Below, piece by piece: positions 8,744 through 36,860 of a stretch of 39,742 bases of DNA; within the stretch, counting starts at the first letter, position 1, and the number at the start of each line of letters is the position of its first letter. A program made the position numbers and the translations under genes. Where the stretch lies: positions 1 to 39,742 of the forward strand of contig JAVHRB010000049.1 in NCBI GenBank assembly GCA_036171455.1, written 5' to 3'. The DNA is from Patescibacteria group bacterium (GTDB taxonomy: Bacteria > Patescibacteriota > Gracilibacteria > BD1-5 > UBA2023). Below the pieces are notes generated by a model. It was not told where the DNA came from. It searched no databases and saw only the letters and a list, made by a program, of their open reading frames with translations.

Positions 8744-9298
8744 ATGGAAAAAATAGAAATTCGGGATCGAGAAAAATCCTATCTCGTTCTCAGTAAGGAC
8801 TTTGGGAAAATGCGTGGTTTCTATAAAGAAACACCAAAAACTACGCCGAGCGATATCGGAAATGTCATAGAAATCGCCATAGAAAGGAAATGAGAAACCA
8901 ATCATATCAAGTCCTGTCGTCCGAAATACGGATTTCACATATCAAATCTCGGTTTCGACGGCGTACACAAATTTCTCCTCATACTGGCGTTTTGTAAAAA
9001 GCAATTGCCCGATGGTGGGGGTGATGGAGCAATATATCGGGATCTGGTTTCTCTGGTCCAACTCTCGGAACATCACGATCCAAATATCCTCCTATTCCTC
9101 TGCGAAGCCCGACTCCTCTCACTGTTCCAACATTGGCCAGAACGATTGAAGAGTACCACTCTCGAAAAAATCAAAGGCCTTGCCGCCGAACACTCTCTCG
9201 AAGAACTTATTAAAATTCAAGGAATTCCTCAAGAACTCTACGAAACTACTCATCTTTACTTTCTACAATCGTATCCATGAACGAATTCATCTATATAA
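8744..9298 (+). CDS. hypothetical protein (weak RecO-like N-terminal OB-fold impression, not established)
   Basis: ATG 8744 (MEKIEIRDREKSYLVLSKDFGKMRGFYKE). Same frame as ORF 9005-9280. In-frame TGA at 8891-8893 and 9278-9280. TAA 9296-9298. Overlaps the pilD start by 22 nt. Confidence 0.5.
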
Positions 9299-10125
9299 CT
9301 ATCGGCATACTGTGAGCTATCCTCGGAAGCTTTGCTTCTGCCGTTATTCCACGAATCAAATACAAGCAGGATTTTGTCGCCGCACGAAGCGAATGTCCAA
9401 ATTGTCACCACCATTTGGGAGTTTTCGACCTATTCCCCATCTTTTCTTTTGTCTTTTTACTCGGAAAATGCCGATACTGCAAAGCAAAAATTCCTCCGTA
9501 TCATTTTCTTTTGGAATGAAGTATGGTCGGCGGATTTCTCCTCGTAGCCATGCGTTTTGTCGATATATCCGCAGTGGTTTTGGGCGATACAGCACAACTG
9601 GCACGACTCATATTCCTGCTGATTTCCATGTTTGTTACGGTGGTGTTTACGGCGTACGACCTCATGTACCTGGAAATTCCAGACGAGTTTATGATTCCTT
9701 TTCTCATTATCGCATTTTTCGTTTTGAGTGGAGCTCAATTTTTGCCGGCTGGTACATTTGAATATTTCATTGCTTTCAAAGATTATGAATACTTAAACGT
9801 AGTATTATATCAAGCATTTTTATGAGGCGTTCCCATCTTCCTTTTTTTCTATCTCCAACGGTTGGTTTCCAATGGAGAATGGATTGGTGGAGGCGATCTG
9901 CGAATCGCCATGTTTATGGGATTTGTCGGAGGGGCAAAAATCGCCTGGGTCTGACTTTTCCTTTCGTATATCATCGGAAGTGTCGTCGGGGTAGTGCTAC
10001 TCGCGATATACCGGAAACGATGAATGCAAATACCATTTTGACCATTTCTCGCCTGTGGCCTATGGGCGTCTATGGTGTGGTATGAACCCATGATTAGCTG
10101 GTATTTAAAATTATCATTAATATAA
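9277..10125 (+). CDS. pilD: prepilin peptidase / N-methyltransferase (peptidase A24, PilD family)
   Basis: ATG 9277. ECPNCHHHLGVFDLFPIFSFVFLLGKCRYCKAKIPPYHFLLE is the Cys4 N-terminal domain. YDLMYLEIPDE and GGGDLRIAMFMGFVGG are the two catalytic Asp regions. IPFGPFLACG is present. Six in-frame TGA, e.g. 10039-10041 = Gly of PFGPFL. TAA 10123-10125. Confidence 0.9.
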
Positions 10126-12937: not shown

Positions 12938-13683
12938 TATTCCTATACAATGCCAAAGTACTTTCGCTCTCTTTTTTAAGTAACAATCCGATTTATATCT
13001 CTTTCAAATGCTAATCTATGTTCTATAGAAGTTCCGATCTTAAAAAGATTTTTTTAAATCACGGTGGAAACTCGATTATTGAGGTAATGGTAGTTATCGT
13101 GGTAGTAACCATGGGAATTGTCGGAGCCTATCAAATAACTTCCAAAGGTATAGTTTTAGCGGCAACGACAGAAAACCGCATCAAAGCAATAAACATAGCT
13201 CGGGAAGGATTGGAAATCATAGAAAATATACGAGATACCAATTGGGTGAAACTTTCCAGCGATCTCAATGGGTGTTGGGATGTGATAAATTATGACGTTA
13301 CCTGTATCGGCAGCAGTACGGGAGCTAGTACCAACAAAATCGTTCCCGGTTCCTATATTACTTCGCAAAATGCCAACGGAACTTGGGTTCTCACTGCGGT
13401 AGCTGGGCCCGTAGGAACTGGATCAGTATATCGCTCGAAATTTCCTGTATACCTCGATACCAATGGTCTGGTTACTCAGTCGGGATGATATACGGCACTC
13501 TGTACCCCAACAGTAACAAAAAACTGCAAGACTCCGTTTACCCGGGAACTCATCATTACTCGTCCGACGGATTATTCCACTATCGATATCGAAGCGAAGA
13601 TTACCTGGACGGAACTTGGAAAAACCGAACCGTTTGAGGTAAAAATACCATATACCCTCTACAATTGGAAATACCAGTTCTAC
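12224..13683 (+). repeat. tandem duplication of a 666-nt pilin module (period 794 nt): 12224-12889 and 13018-13683
   Basis: The two copies are collinear from their ATGs with no indels. 12426-12723 is identical base for base to 13220-13517 (298 nt), bounded by G/A mismatches at 12425/13219 and 12724/13518. The 5' 200 nt is clearly more diverged. Confidence 0.9.
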
Positions 13684-16600
13684 ACCGACTCCACAGCTCC
13701 AATCGTAAATTGCGTAGCGAGTTGGAGTTCTTGCAATGCATCTTGTAAACAAACCTATTCCATAACAAATCCTGCAAGCGGAGGAGGTACGGCTTGTTTT
13801 GCAGCCAACGGTACGATTCGTGCTTGTACTTGAGGAGCTTGTATACCACCTGCACCATCATGCGAAGCAAATCCCGGCTATGCTAATGCGACCTACACGA
13901 CCGGAACACCTACGGTGGCAAACCAGTCTTGGCAGAATACAAACCCGACCGGTGCTTGTTATTACGCATGTACGGGGATTTATAGTGGAACGAGTTGTAA
14001 TTTGCTGACCATTACGGGAACTGACGCTATAGGGAGAAGTTGGGCCAATGGGACCTACGCACCTACTTGTAGCGACTATCGATTTCCAACGAATCCAAAA
14101 ACCTATTCTGGAAGCACGGGAAACGGAATTTATCAATTAGATCCTGCTGGATGAAGTCCATTCAAAGCCTATTGTGATATGACGACAGACGGAGGCGGAT
14201 GGACGGTCATAGCTTCGGATGGTCCGGGAAATACTACGCAAAGCCTTTCGGCCCTCTGACAGAATCCAACCCCAACGACTGCTGGAATGATTCCCTATTT
14301 TATCAATGGGAAACTCAAGGACTATTCTACGGCCATGAAAGTCGTGAGTATAGCAGATCCGACAAAAAATATGACCTATGATACGACTCCAACTTGGCTA
14401 TGAAGTACCTTGAGTTTGGCGAGTTCCGAATACGGATATCTGTACGCTGGAGCTAATGGTTTCGAATGAGGGGCCAATGGTTCTCATAAGTGTAACTTCT
14501 CCATCATCGTAATCGGAAACCAAGCTTGCAGTGCAGGCTGGTCCACCCCCTATCCGACCAACGGTGAAATTTATGGTGCCGTTAAAGGCAATACCATTCC
14601 TGCCTACGGCGCTATCGGGCACTCTTGGCAATTCGCAGGAAACGGTTATGCATTCAGACTCTGATGGACTATTCCCGATCCAGCTTACAGTTCATATTAC
14701 AATAACAGAGTATCGTCCTATCTCATGATTCGGAAAGATTCGACTTATACAACCATTGTCGGGGATAATGCCACCGGGAGAAAGTGGAGCGACGGGTCAT
14801 ATGCCAATACCTGCAATGACTACCGCAATCCGGTCGTACCAAAAAAGTACCTGGGGAAAACTGGTGATGGAATCTATTGGATAGACCCGGATGGGGCAGG
14901 GGCAAACGTGCCTTACAAAGCCTACTGTGATATGACGAACGACGGAGGAGGATGGACACTCGTCCTCAAAGCTGACGGAAGCCAGAATAATTTCTGATAC
15001 AACTCGGCCTACTGGACCAATGCCACCACTCTCAATCCTACAGCTTTTGATCATGATTCGACGGAATTCAAGAGCGAAGGCTTCGGTACGATGAAATTCT
15101 CCGAAGTACAATTGGAAATGGATACGGGAATCATCAAGAAAAAAATAGTCTTGCCTGCATCGGGAAATTCACTTCAAGAAATCTTCAAACGATGATATCA
15201 AAGTACTTCATTATGAAAGAGTACCTGGCTTTCCATGGTACCCGGTTCTTCCCTACAGCCGAACTGTAATATGGAAGGAATCAACGTGACACCGTCGGGT
15301 GGATCCCGAAAGGCACGTATCGGTTTTTCCGCAAATCAGGAAAATGACTGCAATACGAACGACAGCGTAATCGGAATATGACTTACGGATGCTGCCTATA
15401 CCACGGGTAACAAATGCGGAAGTACCTTATGTAGTGCATGAGTTGTGGATACCAGCTCCATCGGATACCTCTATGTTCGTTACGATAATTCATCGGTTTC
15501 CGTAATCGGAGATAATGCCGCAGGGAGAAAATGGTCAGATGGATCATCTGGGACCAGTTGTTACGACTACCGATATCCTACCAGTCCGAAAGCTTATGTT
15601 GGTAGCACTGGCGATGGGACATATTGGCTCGATCCGGACGGGGTCGGAGGCCCTGGAGCTCCATACAAAGCCTATTGCGATATGACGACGAATGGTGGAG
15701 GATGGACTTTGGTTCTCAAAACCGATGGAAATCTATCAACTTTTGCCTACAGTTCTGCTAATTGGACCAGCAATACCCCCCTCAATGAAACTTCCTTTGA
15801 TCATGATACGACGGAATTCAAAAGTAGTGGGTTCAGTACGATGAAATTCTCTGAGATACTTCTTGAAATGTCCACCGGGGGTGTTAAATGAACGGTTGCC
15901 ATACCGATGTTCTGAACTTCCCTCAAAGACATTTTCTCCGGATGATATCAAAATGCTGCTGCTGGAAAAAGCGCTTGGATGTCCAGTATTGCGGGATCGT
16001 CATTGCAACCTTACTGTAATATGGAATGAGCCAATGTGATTCCAACGTGAGGGGCTCGTGCTCGATTATGATTTACGAGCAATAATGAAAATGACTGTGG
16101 AACGAATGATAGTGTTATTTGAGTGGGATTCACGGGACCAACCACAGCCGGAAATCTCTGCTGAAGCACCCTTTGTAGCAATTGAAACGTTTCCACTCCA
16201 TCTTTCTGATACGTGTATATCCGTTTCAACAATGCTTCAGCGCTAACTGTTATGTGAGACAATCTCTCGGGCAGGACCTGGTCGAACGGCGACTTTGCCA
16301 AAAGCTGTTATGATTACAAATATCCTACTTATCCTAAAATTTACTTTTGAAGTACAGGAGATGGAACATACTGGATAGATCCCGATGGAGTCGGCGGAAC
16401 TTCAGCATTTAAAGCCTATTGCGATATGACAACGGACAGTGGTGGTTGGATGGTATTCCAAAAAAGATTTGATGGTAGTGTTGATTTCTATCGAAATTGG
16501 GCCGATTACAAATCCGGATTCGGGGATACCAATTCGGAACACTGGCTCTGAAACGACAAATTGAACGTTCTTACGAGCGGTTCGAACGTGAACGAACTCT

Positions 16601-18321
16601 ACGTAGCATTGAAAGCAGCTGACAATACAGAGGTCTATGCGAAATATTCCTATTTCCAAATGCAGGACGAGGCTGGAAAATACAAACTTTCCGTAGGGGG
16701 GTATACGGGAAATGCTGGAAACGCGTTTTGAGGACACGACGGATATAATTTTACGACTTACGACCAAGACAATGATACCTATTCTGGGAACTGCGCTACA
16801 TCGTTCCACGGTGCATGGTGGTATTCCGCTTGCCACGTATCCAATTTGAATGGGAAATACCTTCCGGGTACACATCTCAGTTATGCGGACGGAATGGAAT
16901 GGTCAACTTTCAGAGGACAATACGAAGGGATGATGGAAACGAAAATGATGATTCGACCGACACACACAGTAATGACCTATATCATAGGTAATGACACAAT
17001 CGGTAGAAAATGGTCCGACGGCACGTATGCGAGCAGTTGCAATACCTATAGGAATCCGACCGCTCCGAATATCTATTCCTGGGATACCGGCAATGGAAAC
17101 TATTGGATTGACGTGGACGGGACTGGTCCATTGGCACCTTTGCAAGTCTATTGCGACATGTTGTCTGATGGAGGATGATATACCTACTATGCCATAAATT
17201 CCGGATTGAGCACCAGCGCCTACACCGATAACGACAGTTGCAAGGTTCTTGGTTTGCAAATGGTAATCCCGAGATCCAAATCCCATTGGCTTTCCATGAC
17301 ATCGAAATACGATAGTTCGTATTTCGCTACCGTACCGGGAATCTATAGTCCGGTAGGTGGAACATCCTATACGTCGTGCATCATGCGCGACCATGCGGTA
17401 TACAGTACGTGATGCCCCGATTGGCAGGCGCTCGACGGTGGGCATTGGTGGATACGAGATACTGTTTTTAATGAACCGAATGGGGATTATACTGCCGGAT
17501 GTTGGCTCTCGACGTATGGATGAGTTACCGCGACTACCATCAACAATGACCAAATCATCAACGATTATAACTGCAATTATTCGACCACGAAATATATTTG
17601 TTCTACCAATGACAAGACACCTTCGAACATCATAGTAACAGGAAACGACACTACTGGAAGAAAGTGGTCAAACAATACCTATGCGACAAGTTGTAATACC
17701 TACAAGAATCCATCCGCGCCAAGGTTTTATACGGGCGACATCTGAGATTGATCCTATTGGATAGATCCGGACGGAATGGGGACTGGAGCATTGCAATTCA
17801 AAACCTATTGCGATATGACCACGGACGGGGGCGGATGGACATTAGTAGGAAGAAGCGGAAACGCTTGTACCAACAGTGCCGACTATGGATTTTTCAAAAA
17901 CACTCTGACCGACCCTTCTGACATAGCCGAATGTTACTCAGCAGACGTGAGCAAATTGGGGTTCAGCAAATTGAAATTTTGAGGGTTCAGCGATACGGGC
18001 AATTTTGCCATTACACGAGGTTTGACTTTTTCAATGTCGGCATCAACGTTAATGAACGCGGCCAACAACGAATCTACTGCCGCTTGGAATTTTTCTTCAA
18101 CGGCTTGAACGGGCTTGGATTGTGGAACATGAAAGACTTGGAATAGATGAGTTTCTACCGCCATTAACAATACCTGATTTCCTTTTGCGTGTACTCATGC
18201 GGGTTGTTCATGACAATTGAACTGGACTGGAATCGGAAATACGAACAATTATTTCGAGTCATGCTATCTTCCTACCGACAATAGAGATTTATGACCGTAT
18301 TATTCCGTTTGGGTACAGTAG
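13018..18321 (+). CDS. giant type IV pilin-like adhesin (1767 aa): prepilin signal + pilin domain + TSP1-like Cys module + six fibrinogen-like YCDM..GGGW lectin modules
   Basis: ATG 13018 is preceded by in-frame TAA 13012-13014. Checked line by line, the frame is free of TAA/TAG up to TAG 18319-18321 and holds 38 in-frame TGA by my count. Residues 1-222 parallel the upstream pilin ([29 protein letters not shown]). Each downstream module carries GR[KS]W..G.YA..C..Y..P and G.G.YW.D.DG.....P...YCDM..DGGG. Confidence 0.85.
13711..13842 (+). other. thrombospondin type-1-like six-Cys module inside the giant pilin
   Basis: [45 protein letters not shown] compares with the TSP1 pattern WSxWSxCSxxCG...GGxxC......C....C. 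Confidence 0.5.
14005..18318 (+). repeat. six tandem protein-level modules (about 650-750 nt each) of the giant pilin; starts near 14005, 14749, 15499, 16243, 16975 and 17629
   Basis: YCDM codons occur at about 14170, 14923, 15670, 16417, 17149 and 17803. Modules 2 and 3 are close paralogues by eye over their whole length. The other modules share only the N-terminal 70-80 residues. Confidence 0.8.
16243..16977 (+). other. complete fibrinogen-related domain (FReD / fibrinogen C-terminal globular domain), module 4 of the giant pilin
   Basis: [68 protein letters not shown]...[16 protein letters not shown]...[37 protein letters not shown]. All canonical FReD motifs appear in order. Confidence 0.85.
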
Positions 18322-18572: not shown

Positions 18573-21173
18573 CTATTCCCCCACCACAAACTCCTTTTCC
18601 GCATTCAAAATCGTTCCATCCACGTAATTGGCCGAAAGCTTTACATTGAACGTTCCGCTTTTCTCAAAGATATGGTTCGGAGTCGGGCTCTGATCAATCG
18701 GAGTGCCGTCTCAGAAGTCCCAGGAATAGGATTCTAACTGTCAAATAGTACCTTCCTTCGTTCGAAATTCCACGATTTTTCCAACGATTCATTCAGATAC
18801 CAAACTTTCTATTTCCAATTTCTTCGTCAATTCCTTGATAACGAGTTGTCGTGATATTGATTCCTTGTCCCCATCGGTTTTTACGACGGTAAGTTTTACC
18901 GTATATTCTCCGGGAATGGAATAGCGATACATTTTCACGGCTTCCCCTTCAGAAGAAGGTTTTCCTTCTCAGAAATCATATATAAATTGCGATATCTTGC
19001 CAGAACGTACTTTAGAAGCCGACGCATCGAATTTTACATCGACCGTAGCATACAAATCATCCAAGGTATCGTTGCCATTAGAACTTATCTGAAGCGAAGG
19101 AACGATTTCACGCGATTTCCCTTCAATGGTAATTTTTTCGGTAACTTTTGTTTCATCGCCCGTACCAATTTTGGCAAATACGTACGTAACCAATATTTCA
19201 TATTGCTTTTCTTCAACGAAATTATAATCGATTTTCGTTCCTTTTTTTTCTTCGCCACCAATCTTCCAAAGTATTTCTTTTACTTCATATCCCGGGTTGG
19301 TCACTCGGATATTTTCGCCATTGAACGTAATTTTCTGGGGAATTTGTATATTCTGTATCCGATACGATCAGAAATCGTGATCAAATGTACCCTTAATAAT
19401 ATCCGTTCCTGATTCATCCGTCGCCATCAAGAGGGAATCGGTTCATTTTTTTGATAATTGTAGTGGTCGTTGAATCGTTATCTTTTCTACAAAATCAGCT
19501 TTGTTTTTTTCGGAATCGATTACTTCTGCTCTCACCGTATAGGTTCAGATACTCATAAACGTATACTCGAACGTTTCATCTTTCCCTACTGGGGATGCAT
19601 TATCTCAAATATACCAGCTAATATCGGTAATATCAGCCCCTTCTCTCGTTTTGAGGTCAAGGAGCTTGAAAGCGTACTTCGATGGTTCTACCAAATCCTG
19701 GGTTGCCTGTATATCTCATTGTATGACACTTTCAGATTTGGAATTAATAGTAAATACCCTATCACAAATTCCCGGTTTCTTTTTTGGTGTCTGGATTTCT
19801 AAACAAAGGTTCTGTTCAATGTCTTGAATTCGAACACTGAATTTTGCCTCTTCGGAAGATACGACGTCGAATTTCGGTCAAATATACCATTTCAGATTCC
19901 CTATTTTTTTGAGATCGGTGGCGTCGAACAAGTAGTTGGAAGCCGTCTTTTGAACGTTGACCGCACCAAGCAATCGAACCTCAGCGAGGGCAATATCCAC
20001 TCGTTTCGCCTCGCGCGTTACCCGATCCTTTCCACGATAATATCCCGTTGGAGCGTAATTGCCAGCTTTAGTGTATTCACAAGTAATACTCGTATCGGTG
20101 GCAGGATCTGTTCCTTCGTGTTTGACACCTCCGTTTTGGCAATCGATAAAATAACCTTCGATATCCAGGGATTTTCTCGCATATACAACATCCGAGGAAA
20201 GATCATATTTGAGGGTTATCGGACCGATAAGATTGTTCAAATCTCCCAATTCTGCCCCATCTTTGAAATCTTTGGAAAGCAAAAGCGTATTGTCATATAC
20301 GATTACCCCACCAGTAGGCCGAACGAAATCCTGAGCCCCAATCTTATCGAAAAGGAACGCCCAAAAACCGATATTGGAAAACAGGAGCATTCCCGTAAAA
20401 ACCGATAATACAATGAATATAGCCCGCTTCTTCTGATTTCCCTTGGAAAGGTATGATTTGAATAGGCAATATATGAAAACAATACTAAGAGTAAACGTCA
20501 GAGTACCGAAAATACCATTTACCAAAGTGGACAACAGCGCTTTGACATCCGCCGGGTTAATTCCAAAATTTATGAAAAATTTGGCCTGATCCGGGTTAAA
20601 TACGATGTATGCAAGAAATGAGCCAAGAAAGATTAATGATACGAAAAGCAGTGCTCACATAATCCGCATAATTTGTGCCGGGGTTACCGGATTTTTCTTT
20701 ACAACAATCGGCGGAGTTGGAGGTATGGCACCATCGGAAACCGGTGTACGAGGACTGACACTGGGACTGACACTGACGCTGGGACCGGCACTTGCCAATA
20801 CTTGATCGAGGATGCTCGCATTATTCTCGGAATCAACCACTGGAATAGCAGTGACCGGTGGTAATGCTGCCGAAGGAATCGTTGTATCAACTTGGCCTGG
20901 CGATGATATGATGGCACTTTCGGGAATGAACGATGTTGGTGCCGCTACTGCGGATGCCACTGCTGGATTCGGCATTATTGAAGGAGAAACTCCCGTGGGG
21001 AGGACTCCAGGAATTGGCACTATCGGATGAGAAACAGAGGGAGTTGGTATATTTGCCACTACCGTAATGGGTGCAGTTTCAGAAGCAATTGGAACCGCAA
21101 GGATTTCATCCAAAAAACTCGGTCGTCCAGGTGCTTCGTCAGGGGTATTCGGGGTGGGAGTATCGTTATTCAT
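18573..21173 (-). CDS. multi-pass membrane protein (866 aa) with Pro-rich N-terminal tail and 4-5 PKD-like extracellular domains
   Basis: ATG 21171-21173. ORFs 20655-21173, 19878-20534 and 18969-19304 share one frame, joined by TGA 20655, 19878 and 18969; the gaps translate cleanly. TAG 18573-18575. TM segments are ALLFVSLIFLGSFLAYIV, GIFGTLTFTLSIVFIYCLF and AIFIVLSVFTGMLLFSNIGFWAFLF. PKD signatures are YSWDF-G-DGTPIDQSPTPNHIFEKSGTFNVKL (G = TGA 18711-18713), FIYDFGEGKP...YSIPGEYTVKLTVV and ISWYIGDNAS...GTYTVRAEVID. Confidence 0.8.
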
Positions 21174-21203: not shown

Positions 21204-24200
21204 TTATTTGAGCCAATCCGGAAGATCATCGACGTTAGCTGTCGGTTGGATTTCCAACATGGGGGTCGTGATTTTCGGTTTCTTTGGCTTTGGTGGTTTT
21301 TCGGTTTTCTTTTCTGATTTCATACTAGCGGGTTCCGGAAGATTATCAGCAAGAGGGGCTGGTTCGGGAAAGCCGTAATTTTTTTCTATTTCAGCATCTC
21401 CGAAAATATCGTCTTCTTCGGGTGGTACGACTTCTGCTGATACTGGTGGTGAAACTGAAACTACCGGCTCGAAATTCTTTAACCAATCGGGTAGCTCCTC
21501 GTTTGCTGGCTCTGGAACTGGCTCTGGAACTGGCTCTGGAACCGATTCCAAAGACGGACTTTCCATTGATATATCCGGAATCGGTTCATTTTCCAATACT
21601 CATGCCGTTGGTTCATTAACTCCTGGAAGTTCTTCATCTCGTTCTTCCATATCGTTCGAGTCTTCTTGTGGTAGTGTCACCATTGACTCCGTCTCATTTG
21701 AATTTTCCAAGGAAGCGGCTACTGGTTTAGTTTCCGTTACATTCGAACCTACGAGCCAGCTCGGTAATTCAGATTCTGGAGGAGTCCCTATTGAAGGCGG
21801 TATTTGCGATTGTGAAATATTCGCAAAACTATCTTCAGTAGCAGCTTCTGGAACACGTTCAACTTCCGGTACGTTCGTAAGTCGATCCGTGGTACTTTTG
21901 AGCCAATCCGGTATTTCAGCAGTGACTTCCTGGGCTGGTGTGGTTCCAATTGAGGACATCGGATCCGTCATTGGGGCTATCGGAGTCAATACGGGACGGG
22001 GGGGTTCAATTGAAGTTGCAGAAGTACCTTGTGACAGAGAACCGAGAATATCAGGAGTATGTGATTGGGAAAATGGTATCGGTTCTACCGTCGGAGTCAC
22101 AACCGGTGTCGGAATTACCACAGGAGCTGGTCGTGGAACATTTACTAGTGATGGATTCGGTTTTCCCTTTCCAAAAACGCGCTCTATAATAAAATCCTGA
22201 AATCAAAGACTTCCATTTTTGTTCATAATCTTGAAGAAAATAAACAACAGAATACCCGCACCAACTACGATTCCGATAATCCATAGAAACACTTTCATAA
22301 TGTTCATCAGAAGTCCACTCAAACCCGTACTAGGTGCCGCAGGAGCCGGTGCCAACTGGTCCGAAGGAATATTCTTGCTACCTCCGTAGATAATAACACG
22401 AAGTTGTTCCTTGAGAATCAACTTGTCGCCATCTGGAATTTCTTTGTCATCCTTGATATATCCAAGGATTTTTTCACCGATAGTCTTATTCATTTCCAAA
22501 TTCGTTGGGTGGGACAAAATTTCTCAAACCAAGCCCGATTTTTCATCCTTACCGAAAATTTCCTCGTATTTCGTATTGCTTTTCGGAATAAGTTTTCAAA
22601 GTACACTGGTCGCGAGTCCGATATCATCCTTCGTTTCAGAATCCGTTAGGAGGAAACTATCCAGAATATCGAGAAATTCGCTTTTTACTTCATCCTTGAG
22701 AGCCAGTTCAGAAATCTTCATCTGGAAATCGATAATCGTTTTCGTTTTCTCACGATCATCCGGCCAGTTTTCCTGTAATTGACTCAATAGTTGCATGAGT
22801 TTGACTCTATCTCCTTCTGGAGCTTTGTTAGCAATAAGATCCTTAAGTGTCGCAAGACCTTCTTTTTCTTTGTCAGTAAGACCAGTTGGAGCTTTCGTTT
22901 CCGTTTGTTTTTCCGGCGTTACTACCGTATCCGAATAGGTTAGGAGTACTTTCAAATCCCGGCTTCCAAGTTTTTTTCCTGCTGCATCGAATAGGGTAAT
23001 TCGTATGGTCCGTTCTTTTTTCGCATCGAATTTTTTGATGACGAAAGGGGCTCCGCTCGTATACGAATCTGTACCTTTGTTATCGGCATCATCGGCAGGA
23101 TCACCATTGAGGTCAGTATCTACCTGGATATCAGTATCAACGGCATATTTGGCAACGCCTTCATTTTGTCCAAGATACAAATATACGGCTGCTGACTTGT
23201 TTTCTACGATAATAGTATTCCCTTCCATGCTTGGATAGGAAAATACATTTACCGAATCTTTGGAATTCTTTATCTTATTCGCGTTCACTACGTCTTTTCT
23301 CAGGGTAACGGTCGTAGTTTTGGTACTTGTTCCATCCCCCACTTCCAAGGTTACTTCCCTATTCTCCAATTCATCCGGAACCGTCACAACGAAACTATCG
23401 GGATTTTCGGAAGTGGAATCGCCTACGGTCCATTTCACAGTGGAAAATACTCCCGTAGTAGTATTGAACAATGCATAGGTGTTCCCCACCCCGATATATT
23501 CGAGATTCGGTACGATTTCATTCCGAACGACGATTTGTTGATATCTGGTATTAGAAATACCGCGATATCCCGCTTTGACTTTCATATTGTAGTTTCCCGG
23601 TACGGAATATTTATGCCGTACGGTCGGTTCCTTGGTCGTTTCATCATAAAATCCATCACCGTCGAAATCCCATTTGTATTCCACATCACTCGACAAATCC
23701 TTTTCAATAATATTTTTTACTGAAGCTTGGAAAGTGACTTCTTCTTCTACTCGAACTTGAGAACTGGAAGCTTTGAGTGTGATGAGTGGTGTATTAATAT
23801 TATCGCTCGCGAGCACAATGGAATACCGTTCATCATGAATTTCCTCGGAATTCACTTTAGCACCGTTAGAATCTTCCATTGATACTGCGAAAAAATATTT
23901 TCCATTGATCTTCGGTACGACAAATGTCGTTTTTGGCCCCTTGGTGATTCGAAAATCCTGTGGTTCCGGATCACTGTCGGTATAATAGTACCAAAGATAG
24001 GAAACAATAACTCCGTCAGGATCGACGGCATTATTGAGTACTACGCTAACCACCACAGGGTCCACATCGGTCTTATCAGCAGAAATGTCGATAGAGGCAA
24101 ACTTTGGCAATGCATTTTCCACTTTGACATATATGGTAGCATTACTGGTCTTATTTGATTTTTGGGATCGTATCGTTAGAGAAACCGGAAAACACCCAAG

Positions 24201-26702
24201 TTCGTCGAACTTGTAAGAAAACTGTTTCTGTGTTGAAGTCTTTCCCTGATATTTCCAAATATAGTCGAGATTCTCCGTTGTACCATCAGTATTCACACTC
24301 TCAGTACCGGAAATCTTCAGAGCATCAGTACGGTTCGTAACATAGGCTTCCCCGGTTGGGCAAGCATCAGGAGTCACCTCCATACTGTCGTTTCACTTGT
24401 TTACGCCGATAACGGCCTGAGGGGAATCCGTATCGACGATATAAACCTTTCGGGCTATAGAATTGGAAGTCCCAGAATCGGCATTTCAGCGAACGGTAAG
24501 CCGAACATTATACGTACCGGATTTCTTGTACGTGTGAAATATTCGTGCTTCACCAGAATTTTCCGTTTCTCCATCACCAAAATCCCATTCGAAAACGGTC
24601 GCTTCCTTGGATTCAGCAACGATGGCAACAGAAGTCCCGATTGGCGTGATTTTTGGAGTAACGATCAGTTTGACCGAAAGTAACGAACTAATCTGGATAT
24701 CTTTTTTCGCCTGAGTCGTTTTTCCCTGTTCGTTCGTTATATCCAACAATACCGTGTGCATACCTTTCGTATTGAACGTATATTGTCCCAACATTCCGCT
24801 ACGCAATGAATTATCAAGTTCGATTTGTTCTCCATCAATCGTCCAAACAAAGGTAAGTTTGCTCGAATCGAGACTGTCCGGGTCAAAACTCCGGGTCGCA
24901 TCGAACGAAATGGTATTGGGTGTTTCGGAATTGATGGATTTTGCCTCAAAATTCGCGATTGGATTTTTGGAATCAATCTGGACCCTCAAATTATCTGTAT
25001 CTTCTTTACCTCCGGCAGACACCGTCTTGAGGCGAACGATATAGTCCCCCATTCGGGCAAATTTATAATTGATCGACTGGTTCTTTGTGGTATAGAGCGA
25101 TTTTCCACTATCAGCCTCCAAGATACTCCATTCATAGGTCAAAAGCGCATTCGAAAGATTACTCGTAGCATTGAATTTGAAATCGTCACCAGCAAACCCG
25201 GTAGTTTTGTTAGCACGTATCGACGCTATCGGATCCTGAGAAATCAGACGGATAATTTTTTCGATTCCAATAGGGCTTTCATTGGTAGTAATTTTAATTT
25301 TCACTGTGTAAATACCTTCCTGAGCATATACTTGCCGTTCGAGTTTTGGCCCTCCATTATAGGAGCTAAGATTCCCATTGCCAAAATCCCACTCTGTTTT
25401 CATAATGGTAGCTCCGGCAGCTGGCGTACTGGAAGAAGCATCGATAACGAGACCGGCACGACCTTGATTCGGAGTAATTTTAAACGTATCGATACTACTC
25501 GCATTTGCACCATTGATGAACAGGAGGATATTTGCAAGTCGGGGGAGGACTTGAATTTCCTGAGTACCGACGAATGGCATAATATCGACTTTTCCTTTGG
25601 AATTCCGACTCGCGGAACTAATATCCAAATTTACCGTATATACGGATTCCGATGAAAATTTATAGCCAATAGAAGGTCCTTTCCCAATGACTTGTCGGGT
25701 ATTTCCTGCACCTCGAATCCACCAGACATAGTTCGAATCTGGAATCGTTACCCCGGAAGGATCTCGTGCTTCCGTAGCTCGGAGTGTACTCGTGAGCGGA
25801 GCATTTCACGAAGTCGGGGTAGCGGTGATTTTTGCGGTAATACTCCCAACCTTTATCTTTGTCAAAAAATCTTTGAGCGCATTTCCTAGACGTTCTATGT
25901 ACACATCAGAATCTGGATATTTTTGAATGAGCGCCAATTGGTTCAGTACGTTGTTGGTAAGACTGGTATTAAAATCCATGGTGGAATCCGAAAAAGTGTC
26001 CTTGGATTGTTCCAGGACACCACGAAGCAAGTTGATATTTTTGGTGGACAGCTTGCCATCGACTTCTTGTTCCTGATCCATGTCTTGCATGATTTTCAGA
26101 ATGCTGGAACGGTAATAGTCAAAACCTCGAGAATCGTTCGTCGCCGCAAAAGTGGTATCGATTACAAAAGGATTTCCCCACTTTTCCAAAAACGTTACCG
26201 GTTTGATCAGGCTGGTATTCGGAGTAGCAGAACCGTTTCCGATAATGAAAGTAGTAATGCTCCATGCGAAGAAAATAATCAATAGCCCGATAATGGCACG
26301 GAAAATAATTTTCTTTCCGCTTTTGACTTTTTCCTCATCGCCCGCAGCGGTCAGGATGGAAAATCCTGCCCACATAATCAGGATAACTACGATGAGTGTC
26401 AGGAATCCAAGGAGATAGATGATAATATCCTGAACGTACTGGGAAAATGTTTTTCCAGTCTCGATACCAGTAATACCGTCTTTCACCGTATCCGTTCCAT
26501 TTTTGAGAGAACAGTAATTTGGATCATTGGAATCAGCACTGTTACAGTACGGTACCTGCTCAGTATCAACACACAGTGGAGGTATACACCATGCTGATAC
26601 CGATGGCGTTGCAATGAGGGAAGATGAGTCATTTCAAACGAGAAATGGAGATGTCAGTATGACCAACATGATGATGAATCGCACCAAACGAAGCATATTC
26701 AT
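21204..26702 (-). CDS. giant surface protein (1832 aa): signal peptide, TrbC/VirB2-like (T4SS-pilin-like) two-TM domain, at least 7 PKD-like domains, helical region, TM helix, Pro/acidic tail with PDWLK repeats
   Basis: ATG 26700-26702 (MNMLRLVRFIIMLVILTSPFLV), with in-frame TAG upstream at 26745-26747. ORFs 25806-26486, 24486-25628, 22596-24383, 22203-22517, 21600-22121 and 21204-21596 all share one frame, separated only by TGA (25806, 24486, 22596, 22203, 21600); the linking gaps have no TAA/TAG. TAA 21204-21206. LIMWAGFSILTAAGDEEKVKSGKKIIFRAIIGLLIIFFAW resembles CPR T4SS-pilin-like proteins. PKD signatures are EWDFGDGETENSGEARIFHTYKKSGTYNVRLTV, YKWDFDGDGFYDE...YSVPGNYNMKV and TEWDFGNGN...GIYTVKIKI. 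Confidence 0.75.
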
Positions 26703-31378: not shown

Positions 31379-32483
31379 GACTGAGTGAGTATTTTCCAGA
31401 AATATTTCGCCGTATGGTACCGAAAATCTCCATTTTACCAAGTTCAGCCTGTATTTCGGTCGTATTGGCTCGGAGTGCCTCTGCGAGTCGGTCGACGGTA
31501 CACTCGTTTCCATCAAGCACGATCAAGATATTCCGTTCGAGAGAATTTTCCGAATTGGGAACAGCAACCGATGTAGCAAGGGATAATCCGTATTCGTTGA
31601 GGATATCGTCCGGAGAGAGCAGAAGCTTTGCCGATGCGTTCTGAATGAGACGATTGGCGCCGAGGGAATTCCTCCGGGAAATATCGGACGGGATGGCGAA
31701 CACGTCTTTTCCCATTTCGAGGGCAAGTTGAGCCGTGATGAGGGATCCGGATTTTTCCTTGGCTTCTACGACAATGAGCCCCCGGGAAAGTCCAGCAATG
31801 ATTTCGTTGCGTTGTGGAAACGTATATGGAGCAGCTTCCATACCAATAGGAAACTGGGAAACTACGGCACCGCCCGAACGGATGACCCTCTCAAAAAGCG
31901 GTTCGTGGGAACGGGGATATGGCCGGTCGATACCGCTGCCGAGCACGACGATCGTGTGACCCTGATATTGTAAAGCGGTTTCATGTGATAGTCCATCGAT
32001 TCCAAGTGCTCCACCAGATACGATAGAAATTCCGGCTCGGACGAGTTTCGGAATGAAACTTTTGACAATCTGTTCCCCATACGGGGTCGCCTGACGGGAA
32101 CCGACCATGCCGATATTGATACCTTCAGAAACGATATTACCCCGGACATAGAGCAAAAACGGAGGATTGGGAATATTATGGAGTTCCTGTGGAAAATCCA
32201 TATCCGAATAGAGCAGAATCCGAATGTCCGTATCCTCGATTTTGGTTCGGTATACGGAAAATGTCTCATTCAACGAGCCGCTGTGGATTTTTGCTTTGCG
32301 CTCGTCGGTCAGGGGTATTTTTTGGAATACCAATGATAATATCCGTCCGGGATTTTCCCATGTCTCCGACTCGATTGTCCGCCTGAGGGTGGCATCGGCG
32401 AAAATGGCAAACAAATCCCGATGAGTACAGCCGAGAAAGTGCAGGTATGACCAGGAAATAGACGTTGGAATCTGGGTTACCAT
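31371..32483 (-). CDS. dprA: DNA-processing protein DprA (SMF family)
   Basis: PPFLLYVRGN, GMVGSRQATPYGEQ, SGGALGIDGLSHETAL, IVVLGSGIDRPYPRSH and VEAKEKSGSLITAQLALEMGKDVFAIP are present. ATG 32481-32483 overlaps the upstream TAA (ATGGTAA). TAA 31371-31373 overlaps the murG start. Confidence 0.88.
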   Translation of the reverse strand: MVTQIPTSISWSYLHFLGCTHRDLFAIFADATLRRTIESETWENPGRILSLVFQKIPLTDERKAKIHSGSLNETFSVYRTKIEDTDIRILLYSDMDFPQELHNIPNPPFLLYVRGNIVSEGINIGMVGSRQATPYGEQIVKSFIPKLVRAGISIVSGGALGIDGLSHETALQYQGHTIVVLGSGIDRPYPRSHEPLFERVIRSGGAVVSQFPIGMEAAPYTFPQRNEIIAGLSRGLIVVEAKEKSGSLITAQLALEMGKDVFAIPSDISRRNSLGANRLIQNASAKLLLSPDDILNEYGLSLATSVAVPNSENSLERNILIVLDGNECTVDRLAEALRANTTEIQAELGKMEIFGTIRRNISGKYSLSHD

Positions 32484-33253
32484 AGGTGAAATGCCGTTTG
32501 AAATGCCAAATTTATTTGATCTGGTTGGTTGAGTATCAGTTGAGCACCGTACGTCGTAGAAACTGGTCCAGCCAAGAGATGGGAAGGAATTTGCGCATTT
32601 TTTGAAATTTGCCATTCCGTCGGATGAACCAAAGAAACTCGCAACACCTGGTATTCTAGAAAACACTGAATCAATATGGAATCCGGGATGGTTTCATTAA
32701 ATAAAACGATTCCTCTCTGCTCGTTTTTTTCCGCGATTTTCGTGAATATCTCCCGAGCTGGTTTTTCTTTGACGCTCTCAGTACATGACAAGATGCACCG
32801 TTTCAAGAATCTGAGGAAATGTCGAAGTTCCTGCGCATCCCTCGGAAACGGATATTCCAGAAATCCACTTTGGGAAACCGATGCGCCTATGAGCACGATA
32901 CTCCCCTGAAGTTCCTGTTCCCAAACCGATTCACAAAGGAGCATGACTGATTCGGACAGCATATCGAATTTAGTTAGCTCCCGGGTACCAAAACGCCAAC
33001 TCGGATCGATGCAAAAAATGAGGCAGGCTTCGTATGATTTTTCCTGCGTATATTCCCGGACAATCAGCGCGTTCTCCTCGAAATTGGATTTTTTGTAATC
33101 GATGCGGGAACATTCCTCTCAAAAAATATAGGGGCGAAGCTCATGAAAATCACCCGAATTCGCCCGAATTCGAGAAACGAAATTCCCGGAATACCGCGAT
33201 TGCAAATGCGTGTTCCGAAAACAGAAATCGAGCGTGTTACGATTGGCGATCAT
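32477..33253 (-). CDS. DUF58-family protein (MoxR-associated, vWA-like)
   Basis: SGNFVSRIRANSGDFHELRPYIFGEECSRIDYKKSNFEENALIVREYTQEKSYEACLIFCIDPSWRF matches the DUF58 G..eF...R.Y..GD....IdWk core. ATG 33251-33253 overlaps the moxR end by 17 nt. TGA 33119-33121. TAA 32477-32479. Confidence 0.72.
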
Positions 33254-34190
33254 ATTCGACCGGTATGCTGTTGAGAATTTCCTGTATCGAATCTGCTATC
33301 GTCACTCCTTGGGAAATCGCGCCGAACGTCAGTCGGATACGGTGGGAAAGCACGAACGGAAGCAGGTATTTGATATCTTCGGGAATGACGAAATTCCGAC
33401 CGCGCATCCGAGCGAGGACTTTGCTGGTAGATGCGAGAGCCAAAGCGGAACGCGTACTGATTCCATGGGTAAATTTGGTACCGACCTGACGCCGGAATCC
33501 ATCGATGAGCCGAGCGATATACTGGTAGATTTTCTCATCTACGAACGTATCGCGGAGACAAAGTTGCTTCCAAGAGTGGATATTTTCATGATTGCAGAGC
33601 GATGCTACTTTTTCATGATTCTCGGCACTCGCGAGAATTTTGGCTTCTACAGCCATGCTCGGATATCCGAGCTCATACGACAAGAGAAACCTATCCAGCA
33701 TGGCATCCGGCAACGTATACGTCCCTACTCCGTCATATGGGTTCATCGTTGCGACCACGAAAAATGGATCATTCAAAGGGAGCGAAGCATTCGCTATGGT
33801 CACTTGCTGTTCCTGCATGCATTCCAACAAGGCGGATTGTACTTTAGGTGGAGCGCGGTTGATTTCGTCAGCCAGTATGAACGAACTGAAAATCGGTCAT
33901 TTCCGGAGGATGAATTCCTTTTCTTTGGGATTGTAAATTTCGGCTCCGAGAATGTCCGACGGAAGCAGATCCGAAGTAAATTGGATACGTTTGAACGGAA
34001 TTCCGAGCGCCTGGGCCGCGAGGTTCGCGGACTTGGTCTTGGCCACCCCGGGAGGTCCGACGAGGAGAAGATGCCCGCCGGCGAGAAGTCAGAGCAGGTA
34101 TATTTCCAAGAGCTCCTGTTGTCCGTAGATATGTTCGGAGAGAGAAGCCTGGAAAGCGGAGACGAAATGTAAAAAATCCGGTTGTGTCAT
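33237..34190 (-). CDS. moxR: MoxR-family AAA+ ATPase
   Basis: ATG 34188-34190 (MTQPDFLHFVSAFQASLSEHIYGQQELLEIYLL-G-LLAGGHLLLVGPPGVAKT; TGA 34089-34091). FILADEINRAPPKVQSALLECMQEQQVT, FFVVATMNPYDGVGTYTLPDAMLDRFLL. TAA 33237-33239. Confidence 0.92.
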
Positions 34191-34379: not shown

Positions 34380-36860
34380 TTAATTATAATATATTGACGT
34401 ATACGCAACATGTTGTTCATACCATAAGCAATCGATTTTCTTCCAAGTCATCCCAAAATTGCTATACTGAAAAAAATTAAACTGAGCATCCACGCAGTTT
34501 GAATTAGCCTGACTTGCGGGAATCGTACCGCTTACCGTAGAACTGGATGTAAAAGCTACTAGTTGATTTGCAGTTGCTGACTGAAAATTACCCGTGCAAG
34601 TACGTCAAGCTCATAGGTTTGAATAATACGATACAGTCGCCGTAGAATAAAAGATGGCTTGTGAAAATCCGCCTACCGAAAAACCATTACAATTCGCTGG
34701 TTTCGTATTCGTGCAATTATATGCACTAAACGGAACAAGGTCTATGGTTTGGCTGGCACTGCATCTATTTCCCGTATCGTATGTGTATGGATCTCCGCCA
34801 GTCGTATTATCCCAACTCCCATTGCAATCCTCATCCACTAATGGAGTTGAACTCGCGCTTCCCGTAATTCCACTACACTTTAAGTGTATGGGGAACTCTC
34901 CTAGAAAAGAACCGTCGCTCACTCGCACAAGCCTCACGGGTACATCGCTCCATGCGCCAATCAATCCACCGCTTGGAAGCCAGACCTGTGGGTGTGAGCT
35001 AGCATCACAGTTATATGTCTGAATATCGGTCCATGTAGTCCCGAGATAATATTGAATCTTACATCCTCCAGCTCCTCCATTCCCAGAACCTGCAATCCAG
35101 TCAACAACGAATTCTCGGTGATTGGGAGTATGTGTAAGCATAAGTCCACTCGGATTCTTCTGAGGACTGGCACATGCCGCAACACTCGTACTTCCTACTG
35201 GACTCACCAGGCTTCCCCCACAAGCGGTCGGATTTCCGCTCGCTTGTGGACAGTAACTGTTTGCCGGGCATATCGTCTGTGTAGCACTCGTGCTTCCGGC
35301 TGCACAATAGGATCCCGCGCTACAAACCGTCTGACTCGTAGCTCCTACAACGTTCGTATAGTATCCAGCATCCGTAGTAGATTGTACTCCGCCCACGCAA
35401 TACGTTCCTGCCACACATTGGGTCTGTGCAGTATTCGTTGTCCCTCCATTGTTTGGACTCGCCCAGTAACCCGCTGTGACAGGCTTACAGCTCGTCTGAG
35501 CCGTCAGATCTTGGTAGGTTCCTATTGCACAAGGTGTTTGAGCCTCAAGTCCAGCACTTGCAACCGCGAATCCCGCGCTTGCCGCTACGCAAGCATTGCT
35601 CCCGTTCCAATAGTATCCTGCCTGACACTGGAACTTGCAGACTCCCTCCGTAGTAGAATATCCCCAAGCTGCCGTTCCCTGAGGTCCATTGACCTGACTG
35701 TTTGGCGGAGCGGCTCCCGTACACGAATCCAGTGCGCACGCCCAAATCCCGCTCGCCACGTAGTTCGAATCGCAGGCCGTACTCACACTTCCGTAACTCA
35801 AAGTCCCGTTGCTACAGCTTGCAGTAACATTCCCAGTCCCGTTCGTAATGGGAGTTCCATAGGTAGCAGAAGCACCATGTCCCAAGCTCGCTATCGTAAT
35901 CCCACTCCAGGTCGCAGCCGTACATCCCACGGAAGCGCTCGAACTACTTATTACCGTACTTCCTCCGAGTTGAGTCTTGACAATGGTTGCCCCATACGAA
36001 ATGAGTGCGGTACTTCCTGTAGTATTCAGGAGTGTAGTAATGTTCTGGTTACTTCCGATATTTGCTCCCGAATACACGTTCTGCAGAGCGGTAACCATAT
36101 TGGTTATATCGGTATCGTTCGCAGGAAGAGTTCCTCCGGAATACACTACGACACTCGGATTGAACGAGTTCGGATTCAAGAGTGCCTTTCCATGAAAGAG
36201 AAGAGTTCCCGACAAAGAAGCAATGCTGAGCGCACTTCCGGTCAGAACCCCGCTATTCGTGACGATGCTCGGAACCGCGAGCACGTATACCAAGCCTCCG
36301 GTAGTAGTTTTTGCGGTGAGTCCATTGTAGTTTCCTCGTATGTACGCGATAGTCGGATCTCACGATGCGGCGTAGGCGGAGGCAATGAGGAGGTTCCGCT
36401 CCAGGGAAGCACTGATATCTCCTTCATATTCTGCTTTAATCTGATAGGCTTTCCCTTCCGCAAGCGAAGAGTAAACATATTCAGAATTCTTGAGCGGATC
36501 AGTAGGCTTCTGATTGATTCCTCCTCCCATGACGGTCGATTTGAGATAGTTTACTACCGATGATCCCACCGTTCCCTGGTTCCATACCACCCCTCAGGAG
36601 TACGTTACCGCAAAGGCGTTGTCCGGAGACGGATAGGACCCTGCCGTGATGATGCTGATATCCAGGGATTTGGAGATGTTCGCTGTATCCCCGACCCGGT
36701 CGGAATCCCGAGCTCGAGAAGAATACCCCCCGATAGAAATGAACCCGATAGCCCCGAGAATCGCAAGTATCGTGATAACGACGATGAGCTCTACGAGCGT
36801 AAAACCGAGAAGGAATTTCCGTAATAGTTTAAGTTCACCTATTTTTTTAGTGTGGTTCAT
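34380..36860 (-). CDS. second giant type IV pilin-like protein (826 aa) with Cys-rich CxxGxY repeats and a C-terminal Cys-rich globular region
   Basis: ATG 36858-36860 (MNHTKKIGELKLLRKFLLG/FTLVELIVVITILAILGAIGFISIGGY, a canonical G/FTLxE prepilin signal). ORFs 36594-36884, 36360-36590 and 34611-36293 share one frame, joined by TGA 36594 and 36360. TGA 34611-34613 is read through to TAA 34380-34382. Repeats are QTPCAIGTYQDLTAQTSCKPVTAGYW, TQCVAGTYCVGG and QTVCSAGSYCAAGSTSATQTICPANSYCPQ (about 35170-35925). Confidence 0.82.

Follow-up and report, generated by a model that had tools for sequence, protein, structure and literature searches.

How the ultrasmall Candidate Phyla Radiation (CPR) bacteria recognise their hosts and keep hold of them is an open question. 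Suspicion falls mainly on type IV pili, which are regarded as the means by which CPR cells attach to hosts (PMC11452946, PMC8080830). The question takes a particular form at a gene for an 826-residue pilin-like protein in a Patescibacteria group bacterium (Gracilibacteria; BD1-5; UBA2023): what does so large a pilin carry, and what could it be for? The window we analysed is the whole stretch of 39,742 nucleotides (nt) of contig JAVHRB010000049.1 from assembly GCA_036171455.1. The product of the gene is probably a modular type IV pilin and acts as an adhesin displayed on the pilus. Behind the prepilin leader, the protein is built of a pilin head, a Ser/Gly-rich linker, a small beta domain, a rigid disulfide stalk, an FN3-like domain and a distal Cys-rich domain, in this order (Table 1).

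The amino terminus has the features of a type IV prepilin. The cleavage context, KFLLG|FTLVE, consists of a short charged leader ending in Gly, a hydrophobic residue at +1 and Glu at +5, and the leaders of homologues are similar in length to the 18 residues found here. The mature protein would start with the hydrophobic alpha1N helix FTLVELIVVITILAILGAIGF (residues 19–39), where TIGR02532 reaches 20.5 bits and so passes its cut-off of 16.3. Together with a PF07963 score close to its cut-off, this bears out the canonical prepilin signal and the pilin identity proposed in the initial annotation of the window. The GspG-like model TIGR01710 matches residues 19–141 (E = 1.3e-6), but far under the cut-off of that model.

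Table 1. Features of the pilin gene, with two other genes, and their positions in the window
Feature	Position (nt)	Strand	Basis or remark
Whole gene	34380..36860	-	826 codons plus TAA stop, TGA read as Gly; ATG at 36860
Class III (prepilin) leader, residues 1–18, ending at Gly18	36807..36860	-	MNHTKKIGELKLLRKFLLG before the predicted cleavage site, Phe19 after it
Pilin head, residues 19–297 (~280), ending at conserved QLGG	35970..36806	-	TIGR01710, alignment of homologues
Ser/Gly/Thr-rich linker, residues 298–312, GGSTVISSSSASVG	35925..35969	-	Passengers of paralogues diverge here
Small beta-rich Cys domain, residues 313–405, 5 Cys	35646..35924	-	Homologues P0006, P0007, P0009 and own-genome C8
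Ephrin-receptor-like (GCC2_GCC3-type) Cys repeat stalk, residues 406–565, 13 Cys, seven AGxY-type hairpins	35166..35645	-	
FN3-like beta-sandwich, residues 566–675, first half of C-terminal module	34836..35165	-	AlphaFold, Foldseek
Signature motif STPLVDEDCNGSWDN, residues 671–685	34806..34850	-	T, D, E, C and W invariant across the family
Distal Cys-rich beta-hairpin region, residues 686–826, ending in IYYN	34383..34805	-	Cys of relatives, AlphaFold
In-frame TGA, codon 89	36594-36596	-	Gly at the aligned position in homologues
In-frame TGA, codon 167	36360-36362	-	Gly in homologues; GGA in Logan contigs L001 and L002
In-frame TGA, codons 750 and 752	34611-34613 and 34605-34607	-	
Prepilin peptidase candidate	9277..10125	+	PF01478 at 9625-9993, 31.5 bits, over cut-off
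Fibrinogen-type-domain protein, 1767 residues, pilin-type N-terminus	13018-18321		

The reading frame of the gene is open only if TGA is read as Gly (translation table 25). Under table 11 it is cut into pieces of 96, 76 and 560 residues, with TGA codons as the sole separators, and the standard code was rejected because it would split the gene in this way. Reading TGA as Trp (table 4) was rejected as well, since homologues have Gly opposite codons 89 and 167, and codon 167 is GGA in other contigs. The gene is present in ten Logan contigs, two of which (L001 and L002, from other runs) were aligned as independent copies. Both are collinear with it over ~2480 nt, with 2 substitutions and 0 indels; one substitution is synonymous, the other changes TGA167 to GGA, and this polymorphism directly supports the assignment of TGA to glycine. 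The gene is thus uninterrupted in independent assemblies, which at this level removes a doubt raised in the initial annotation.

Read with the standard code, the gene is interrupted by TGA four times, and Ser, Thr, Gly and Ala abound in its product; on these grounds it might be taken for an artefact, that is, a pseudogene with stops, an assembly chimera or a biased sequence without a fold. This explanation is excluded. All large genes of the window require TGA as a sense codon, and the proteins obtained by reading it as Gly give clean Pfam matches (DprA, MurG, MoxR, TspO, MiaB-like, PKD giants). In addition to the GGA found in the collinear contigs, homologues exist for every segment of the protein, the gene itself is homologous to other Gracilibacteria pilins in database searches, and both AlphaFold models described below are confident (predicted local distance difference test, pLDDT, of 81–83).

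Comparison with related pilins revealed the modular construction of the protein. Its head shares 54–59% identity with those of P0004, P0005, P0019 and the own-genome pilin C63, the passengers of which differ. P0004 carries a thrombospondin type 1 domain (PF19030, E = 5e-13), P0005 a FISUMP-type domain and C63 a fibrinogen-like domain, while in P0019 the C-terminal module is fused straight to the head, without the 250 residues of beta domain and stalk. The beta domain and stalk, for their part, stand on a different head type in P0006, where an ALK/LTK glycine-rich domain follows (PF12810, E = 3.5e-10), in the own-genome pilin C8 and in P0009, the end of which is FISUMP-like. As the same heads occur with other passengers and the same stalk occurs on other heads, heads and passengers are shuffled at the linker. 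To judge from these alignments, the stalk looks like an insert which lengthens the reach of the end module. P0004 and P0006 come from related Gracilibacteria metagenome-assembled genomes (MAGs), and add two further animal-type modules to those seen on CPR pilins.

A search with a strict prepilin motif gave 33 matches in the genome (1.27 Mb, 95% complete), which has about 30 pilin-like open reading frames. The helix GFTLVELIVVITILAILGTIGFISIQGYSS is common to ~20 of the prepilin-motif matches. Seventeen of the pilin-like genes encode at least 370 residues (range 370–914), and among the passengers encoded in this genome are domains of fibrinogen-like, laminin-G/ConA-like (three genes) and FecR-like type. 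The initial annotation had counted two giant pilins, this one and the 1767-residue fibrinogen-domain protein. The latter is indeed present, but the count was an understatement, given at least 17 pilin-like genes of 370 residues or more, a number to which the 1767-residue protein has to be added. The 1767-residue protein follows the same plan in the same genome, with animal-type adhesion modules behind a pilin-type N-terminus; it differs in its N-terminal class (G|NSIIEV), in its passengers and in being poor in Cys, so that the two are paralogous in design only. A further large pilin, of 914 residues and with 37 Cys, is encoded on C8 (19037-21781, minus strand) and exceeds the protein studied here in length; it has the same beta domain, CxYxCxxGYxW-type repeats and, at its C-terminus, a sub-threshold fibrinogen/COLFI-like domain.

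The sole part of the gene that is repeated in the genome is a 5' section of 115 nt (nt 43–158), found on at least 15 contigs with ~80% identity. Pilin genes lie near the ends of contigs C8, C19, C63, C10, C1, C85, C102, C100, C28, C82 and C88, many of them starting within ~100–300 nt of the end, and the assembly seems to break at this conserved pilin 5' module. The pilin repertoire is therefore probably under-assembled and undercounted. A diversity-generating retroelement target was considered and rejected, as the 3' part of the gene has no second copy in the genome.

All 28 Cys of the protein lie within residues 313–811, with 18 in residues 313–563 and 10 in residues 566–826. The Cys region of ~250 residues and the end of ~260 residues described initially were thus sized correctly, but true periodicity is confined to residues 408–563 (~155 residues). 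The preceding residues 313–405 are all-beta in the AlphaFold model (pLDDT ~85–90), and we found no family name for this domain. Within the periodic part CxxGx[YFW] occurs four times and the hairpin motif [AIP][GN]x[YFW] seven times, at a spacing of 14–32 residues; neither count was equalled when the region was shuffled 20,000 times. Cysteines have been lost from about half of the hairpins. The model of residues 300–570 has a mean pLDDT of 81.4, with values below 50 in its first eight residues, which lie in the linker.

Foldseek comparison of the stalk model with the PDB gave the Chlamydomonas mastigoneme protein MST1 as best match (E = 5e-6, 24% identity), followed by Elapor1 (E = 1e-2), the cysteine-rich domain (CRD) of EphB6/EphA2 (E = 3e-2) and, more weakly, the CRDs of calcium-sensing receptors. 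Matches to the TNFR family (4-1BB, TNFR2, CD40, OX40) were weak, with E = 0.05–0.3 and a Foldseek probability of 0.2–0.7. At the sequence level, PF07699 reaches only 13.2 bits (cut-off 23.1; E = 0.079) in one stretch, residues 439–460, which does not suffice for assignment to that family. Database searches returned proteins with the same repeats (P0011–P0014, E = 2e-18 to 1e-6). Among these, the bacterial protein P0014 exceeds the PF07699 cut-off (66.6 bits, 3 stretches) and aligns with the stalk in BLASTP (E = 4e-12, 33% identity over 165 residues), and P0013, to which the repeats matched at E = 9e-7, has a pilin-like N-terminus. The sole match of the repeat region in a PDB sequence search, 3ult (E = 0.04), was rejected as a spurious low-complexity hit.

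As modelled, the repeats are a real, folded ephrin-receptor-like disulfide rod. The earlier suspicion that they might be mere compositional bias without a fold is answered by the homologues of this segment and by its confident model. Their likening to ephrin-receptor, GCC2_GCC3 and TNFR repeats held for the first two, through the homology of P0014 and the Foldseek results, with the reservation of the low PF07699 score; the likeness to TNFR is weak. The term ‘eukaryote-like’ was an overstatement, given that P0013 and P0014 are bacterial proteins with the same repeat type. Members of the Ephrin_rec_like/GCC2_GCC3 group (PF07699; Eph CRD, Elapor1, MST1 Sushi domains; PDB 8wa2, 9b4h) share the CxxGxY hairpin motif and the predicted fold with the stalk. 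MST1 is likewise an extracellular disulfide-ladder rod: its Sushi domains form an ephrin-CRD-like ladder with rungs ~11 Å apart, by which the filament is stiffened (PMC10602792). Beyond its lower score and the Cys-free half of its hairpins, the stalk differs from these systems in being carried by a bacterial pilin, whereas they belong to eukaryotic receptors or a flagellar hair.

The C-terminal module comprises residues 566–826 (261 residues). Its sequence has 0 matches in Pfam and 0 in NCBIfam, and the profile of its family found nothing at E ≤ 1 among PDB sequences; the view that the last ~260 residues belong to no recognised family has therefore stood. They are no orphan. When 1.84 billion representatives were searched exhaustively with HMMER, 163 clusters came up at E ≤ 0.001, of which 124 were at E ≤ 1e-10, and the module is a conserved bacterial domain family, previously undescribed and the new part of this case. 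The core of the family reads LxLTHTxNxRxFTVSWTAGSGNGGAGGCxLQY...NCDA...VRLxRxSD...C...STPxIDEDCNGxWDN and is followed by a more variable Cys-rich part. Seven Cys, the motif D-E-x-C and one Trp are invariant or nearly so, and Cys755, Cys789 and Cys811 are conserved in the distal region. The module is C-terminal in every family member, with the DEDC motif at a median of 97 residues before the end. Nearly all module proteins, from any lineage, close with an aromatic pair (YY, YN, YF, YH or YR), which in the present protein is part of the IYYN end.

AlphaFold modelling of the C-terminal 260 residues had been proposed from the outset. The model, made with 43 sequences (pLDDT 82.6), divides the region into an FN3-like first half and a distal half that matches no fold. 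The first 110 residues (566–675) form a very confident beta-sandwich (pLDDT ~95) which single FN3 domains match in Foldseek (TMt 0.5–0.6, root-mean-square deviation 4.5–6 Å). The FN3 assignment holds by fold and not by sequence: PF00041 gives no match on this protein and only sub-threshold ones in 4 of 15 relatives (E = 0.014–0.05). An F5/8 type C (discoidin) assignment in two relatives was rejected, as it is sub-threshold and overlaps the FN3 region. The distal ~140 residues are modelled as long beta-hairpins with moderate confidence (pLDDT 55–87). At the DEDCNGxWDN motif, PF11617 (MopE-type, putative metal-binding) gave no match on this protein and a single one (E = 0.044) among the 15 relatives, which falls short of assignment; the likeness is a lead only, and a calcium-binding role of the signature motif is putative.

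To find carriers of the module, one genome per species from 185,579 species was scanned with a TPxxDEDCNGxWDN-type pattern, which yielded 16 confirmed loci. These lie in Myxococcaceae, Archangium, other Myxococcota, Bdellovibrio and Pseudobdellovibrionaceae, and in one genome each of Gracilibacteria and Absconditabacteria; a further bin has a module protein with a head resembling that of the present pilin. Profile searches of sampled genomes, in which the count of each group includes its seed genome, found the module in 4 of 251 genomes of the class Gracilibacteria, in 3 of 201 of Bdellovibrionota and in 3 of 201 of Myxococcota, against 0 of 284 from the rest of Patescibacteria. The frequency is thus ~1% in each carrier group, and the finds in reference genomes are limited to Myxococcota, Bdellovibrionota and Gracilibacteria/Absconditabacteria. 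Because of these low counts, and because one genome of the same genus as ours is without it, the module is rare, patchy and accessory.

The carrier proteins differ between lineages. In the code-25 lineages they are type IV pilins. Bdellovibrio-type genomes have the module standing alone, in small proteins of 245–330 residues secreted by the Sec route, and myxobacteria have it on cysteine-rich lipoproteins of 560–880 residues. A pilin N-terminus is clear by motif in 15 of 162 family members, and a few more are pilin-like. The Bdellovibrio MAG G301, which holds loci L006, L009 and L013, has six copies of the module; three of these are small secreted proteins, and the other three terminate long open frames (1297–1972 residues). 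On L020 (5581-8044), a metagenome contig that is CPR-like and uses the standard code, a laminin-G pilin (444 residues) adjoins the module pilin P0053 (347 residues), near a GyrA gene with an intein. The module tree is poorly resolved; other CPR pilin copies group together and the copy studied here pairs weakly with a myxobacterial one. We rejected naming a donor lineage from this tree, the resolution being too poor.

All of the named carrier lineages are known for predation or epibiosis. The link between the module and such lineages, drawn from few genomes and one search pattern, is suggestive. We put forward only tentatively that the module is an undescribed, horizontally exchanged domain for recognition of prey or host surfaces, specific to bacteria that attack bacteria; with the same reserve, it may be mounted on pilins in Gracilibacteria and Absconditabacteria, secreted alone in Bdellovibrio-like bacteria and carried on lipoproteins in myxobacteria.

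The same family data bear on whether the module is adhesive at all. It could instead serve structure or sorting, or be delivered to prey as an enzyme or a toxin-like effector, with the pilin as its carrier. The constant C-terminal position with the usual aromatic end, the small secreted proteins of Bdellovibrio-type genomes and the lack of a known fold in the distal half would fit such a role. We regard it as quite improbable, because no catalytic motif or family match was found, the FN3-like sandwich of the first half is typical of binding or spacer modules, and a sorting signal would make no sense on a pilin, which is exported by way of its N-terminus.

A pilus-displayed adhesin presupposes the machinery to make it. 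The match to PF01478 in the window (Table 1) is the single one in the genome, which also has seven T2SSE (PF00437) matches representing PilB/PilT-type ATPases, a VKOR protein and three DsbA-like proteins. Judged from gene content, this set would suffice for the processing, assembly and oxidation of such a pilin. The prepilin peptidase, the gene of which lies 25 kb off, would cleave the leader behind Gly18. The alpha1N helix, near-identical to that of ~20 paralogues, would then admit the subunit to a common filament core, driven by the PilB/PilT-type ATPases. As the subunit is bulky, it is probably of low abundance or located at the tip. Oxidation of the 28 Cys would take place outside the cell, by the VKOR/DsbA-type system. 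The FN3-like and Cys-rich module at the far end is the likely binding end, with the repeats as a spacer, and retraction of the pilus would pull the cell onto its host. The gene would represent one of several alternative passengers on similar heads, beside the fibrinogen-type, laminin-G/lectin, FISUMP and FecR-like ones, and the thrombospondin type 1 and ALK glycine-rich ones of relatives.

An alternative use of the pilin N-terminus is conceivable. The class III signal and alpha1N might be a mere membrane anchor for a static surface fibril, with the protein acting as a static adhesin or part of a fibrous coat. The gene does lie outside any pilus operon, the passenger of ~515 residues is very bulky, and the fibrous surface of Vampirococcus has been attributed to large membrane proteins (PMC8080830). 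Yet alpha1N with its Glu at +5 is nearly letter-identical in ~20 paralogues, as expected of an assembly interface and not of an anchor alone, and the genome has the full pilus machinery. A static fibril is thus unlikely.

Several findings weigh against a pilus-displayed adhesin. The immediate neighbours of the gene are not pilus genes but encode MoxR, DUF58 and TspO. The PF07963 match to residues 19–39 falls just short of its cut-off (20.1 against 21.2 bits). Most relatives of the module are non-pilins, which leaves room for a function unconnected with pili. The distal half, modelled with only moderate confidence, has no Foldseek match in the PDB or among the viral models of BFVD, where matches of FN3 type cover the first half only; its putative binding role therefore rests on position and analogy. 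These points reduce our confidence in the pilus-displayed adhesin, which nevertheless remains the reading we prefer.

Modular pilins, composed of a pilin module and functional modules with a presumed adhesin role, have been surveyed in more than 1,200 cases, CPR bacteria being among the carriers (Raynaud et al. 2021, PMC8179133). The protein described here conforms to the definition, with its head (19–297), short linker (298–312) and passengers (313–826), and with the same head occurring with other passengers. The Streptococcus sanguinis pilins PilB, with a vWA module, and PilC, with a lectin module, likewise have an N-terminal pilin module, a short linker and functional modules (PMC8179133), and paralogues of the lectin type (laminin-G/ConA-like) are found in this genome too. 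In comparison with these, our pilin has three or four passenger domains with ~515 residues and 28 Cys, and an unusually large head of ~280 residues. Neither of its passenger types is among the 15 commonest architectures quoted from the survey (PMC8179133). CofB of enterotoxigenic Escherichia coli and TcpB of Vibrio cholerae are large type IVb minor pilins with beta-rich C-terminal domains past a flexible linker, and are thought to be tip caps (PMC8179133). We found no sequence or fold match between them and our protein, which has a short, type IVa-like leader and a different domain set.

The modular design as such is therefore already published (PMC8179133). New are its occurrence in a code-25 CPR bacterium and this combination of domains, and also the size of the paralogue family and its uniform assembly helix. 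Within the library of literature that was searched, no paper joined pilins with ephrin-receptor-type repeats. The chief novelty is the C-terminal module family with its narrow taxonomic range.

Around the gene, a promoter and terminator scan found sites no commoner than by chance. A MoxR (AAA_3) and DUF58 gene pair lies on the same strand, 190 nt downstream of the pilin stop (32477-34190, minus strand), with no evident link to it. Two PKD-repeat giants are also encoded on the minus strand of the window, of 1832 residues (21204-26702) and 866 residues (18573-21173). The larger has an N-terminal T4SS_pilin domain (PF18895, residues 90–153), and may be a second type of fusion between a pilin and adhesion repeats, on a type IV secretion pilus.

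Annotation with the standard code splits genes of this kind, and assemblies break at the pilin 5' repeats, so that counts of pilins in code-25 bacteria come out too low. In the present case, ~30 pilin paralogues take up a large share of what a 1.27-Mb genome can encode, and they combine one near-identical helix with many passengers of binding type. Such a repertoire points to a combinatorial and testable strategy of ‘one pilus, many tips’. The C-terminal module offers a compact target of ~260 residues for structural and binding studies. If it is truly limited to three lineages known for predation or epibiosis, this would point to a common tool for the attachment of bacteria to other bacteria.

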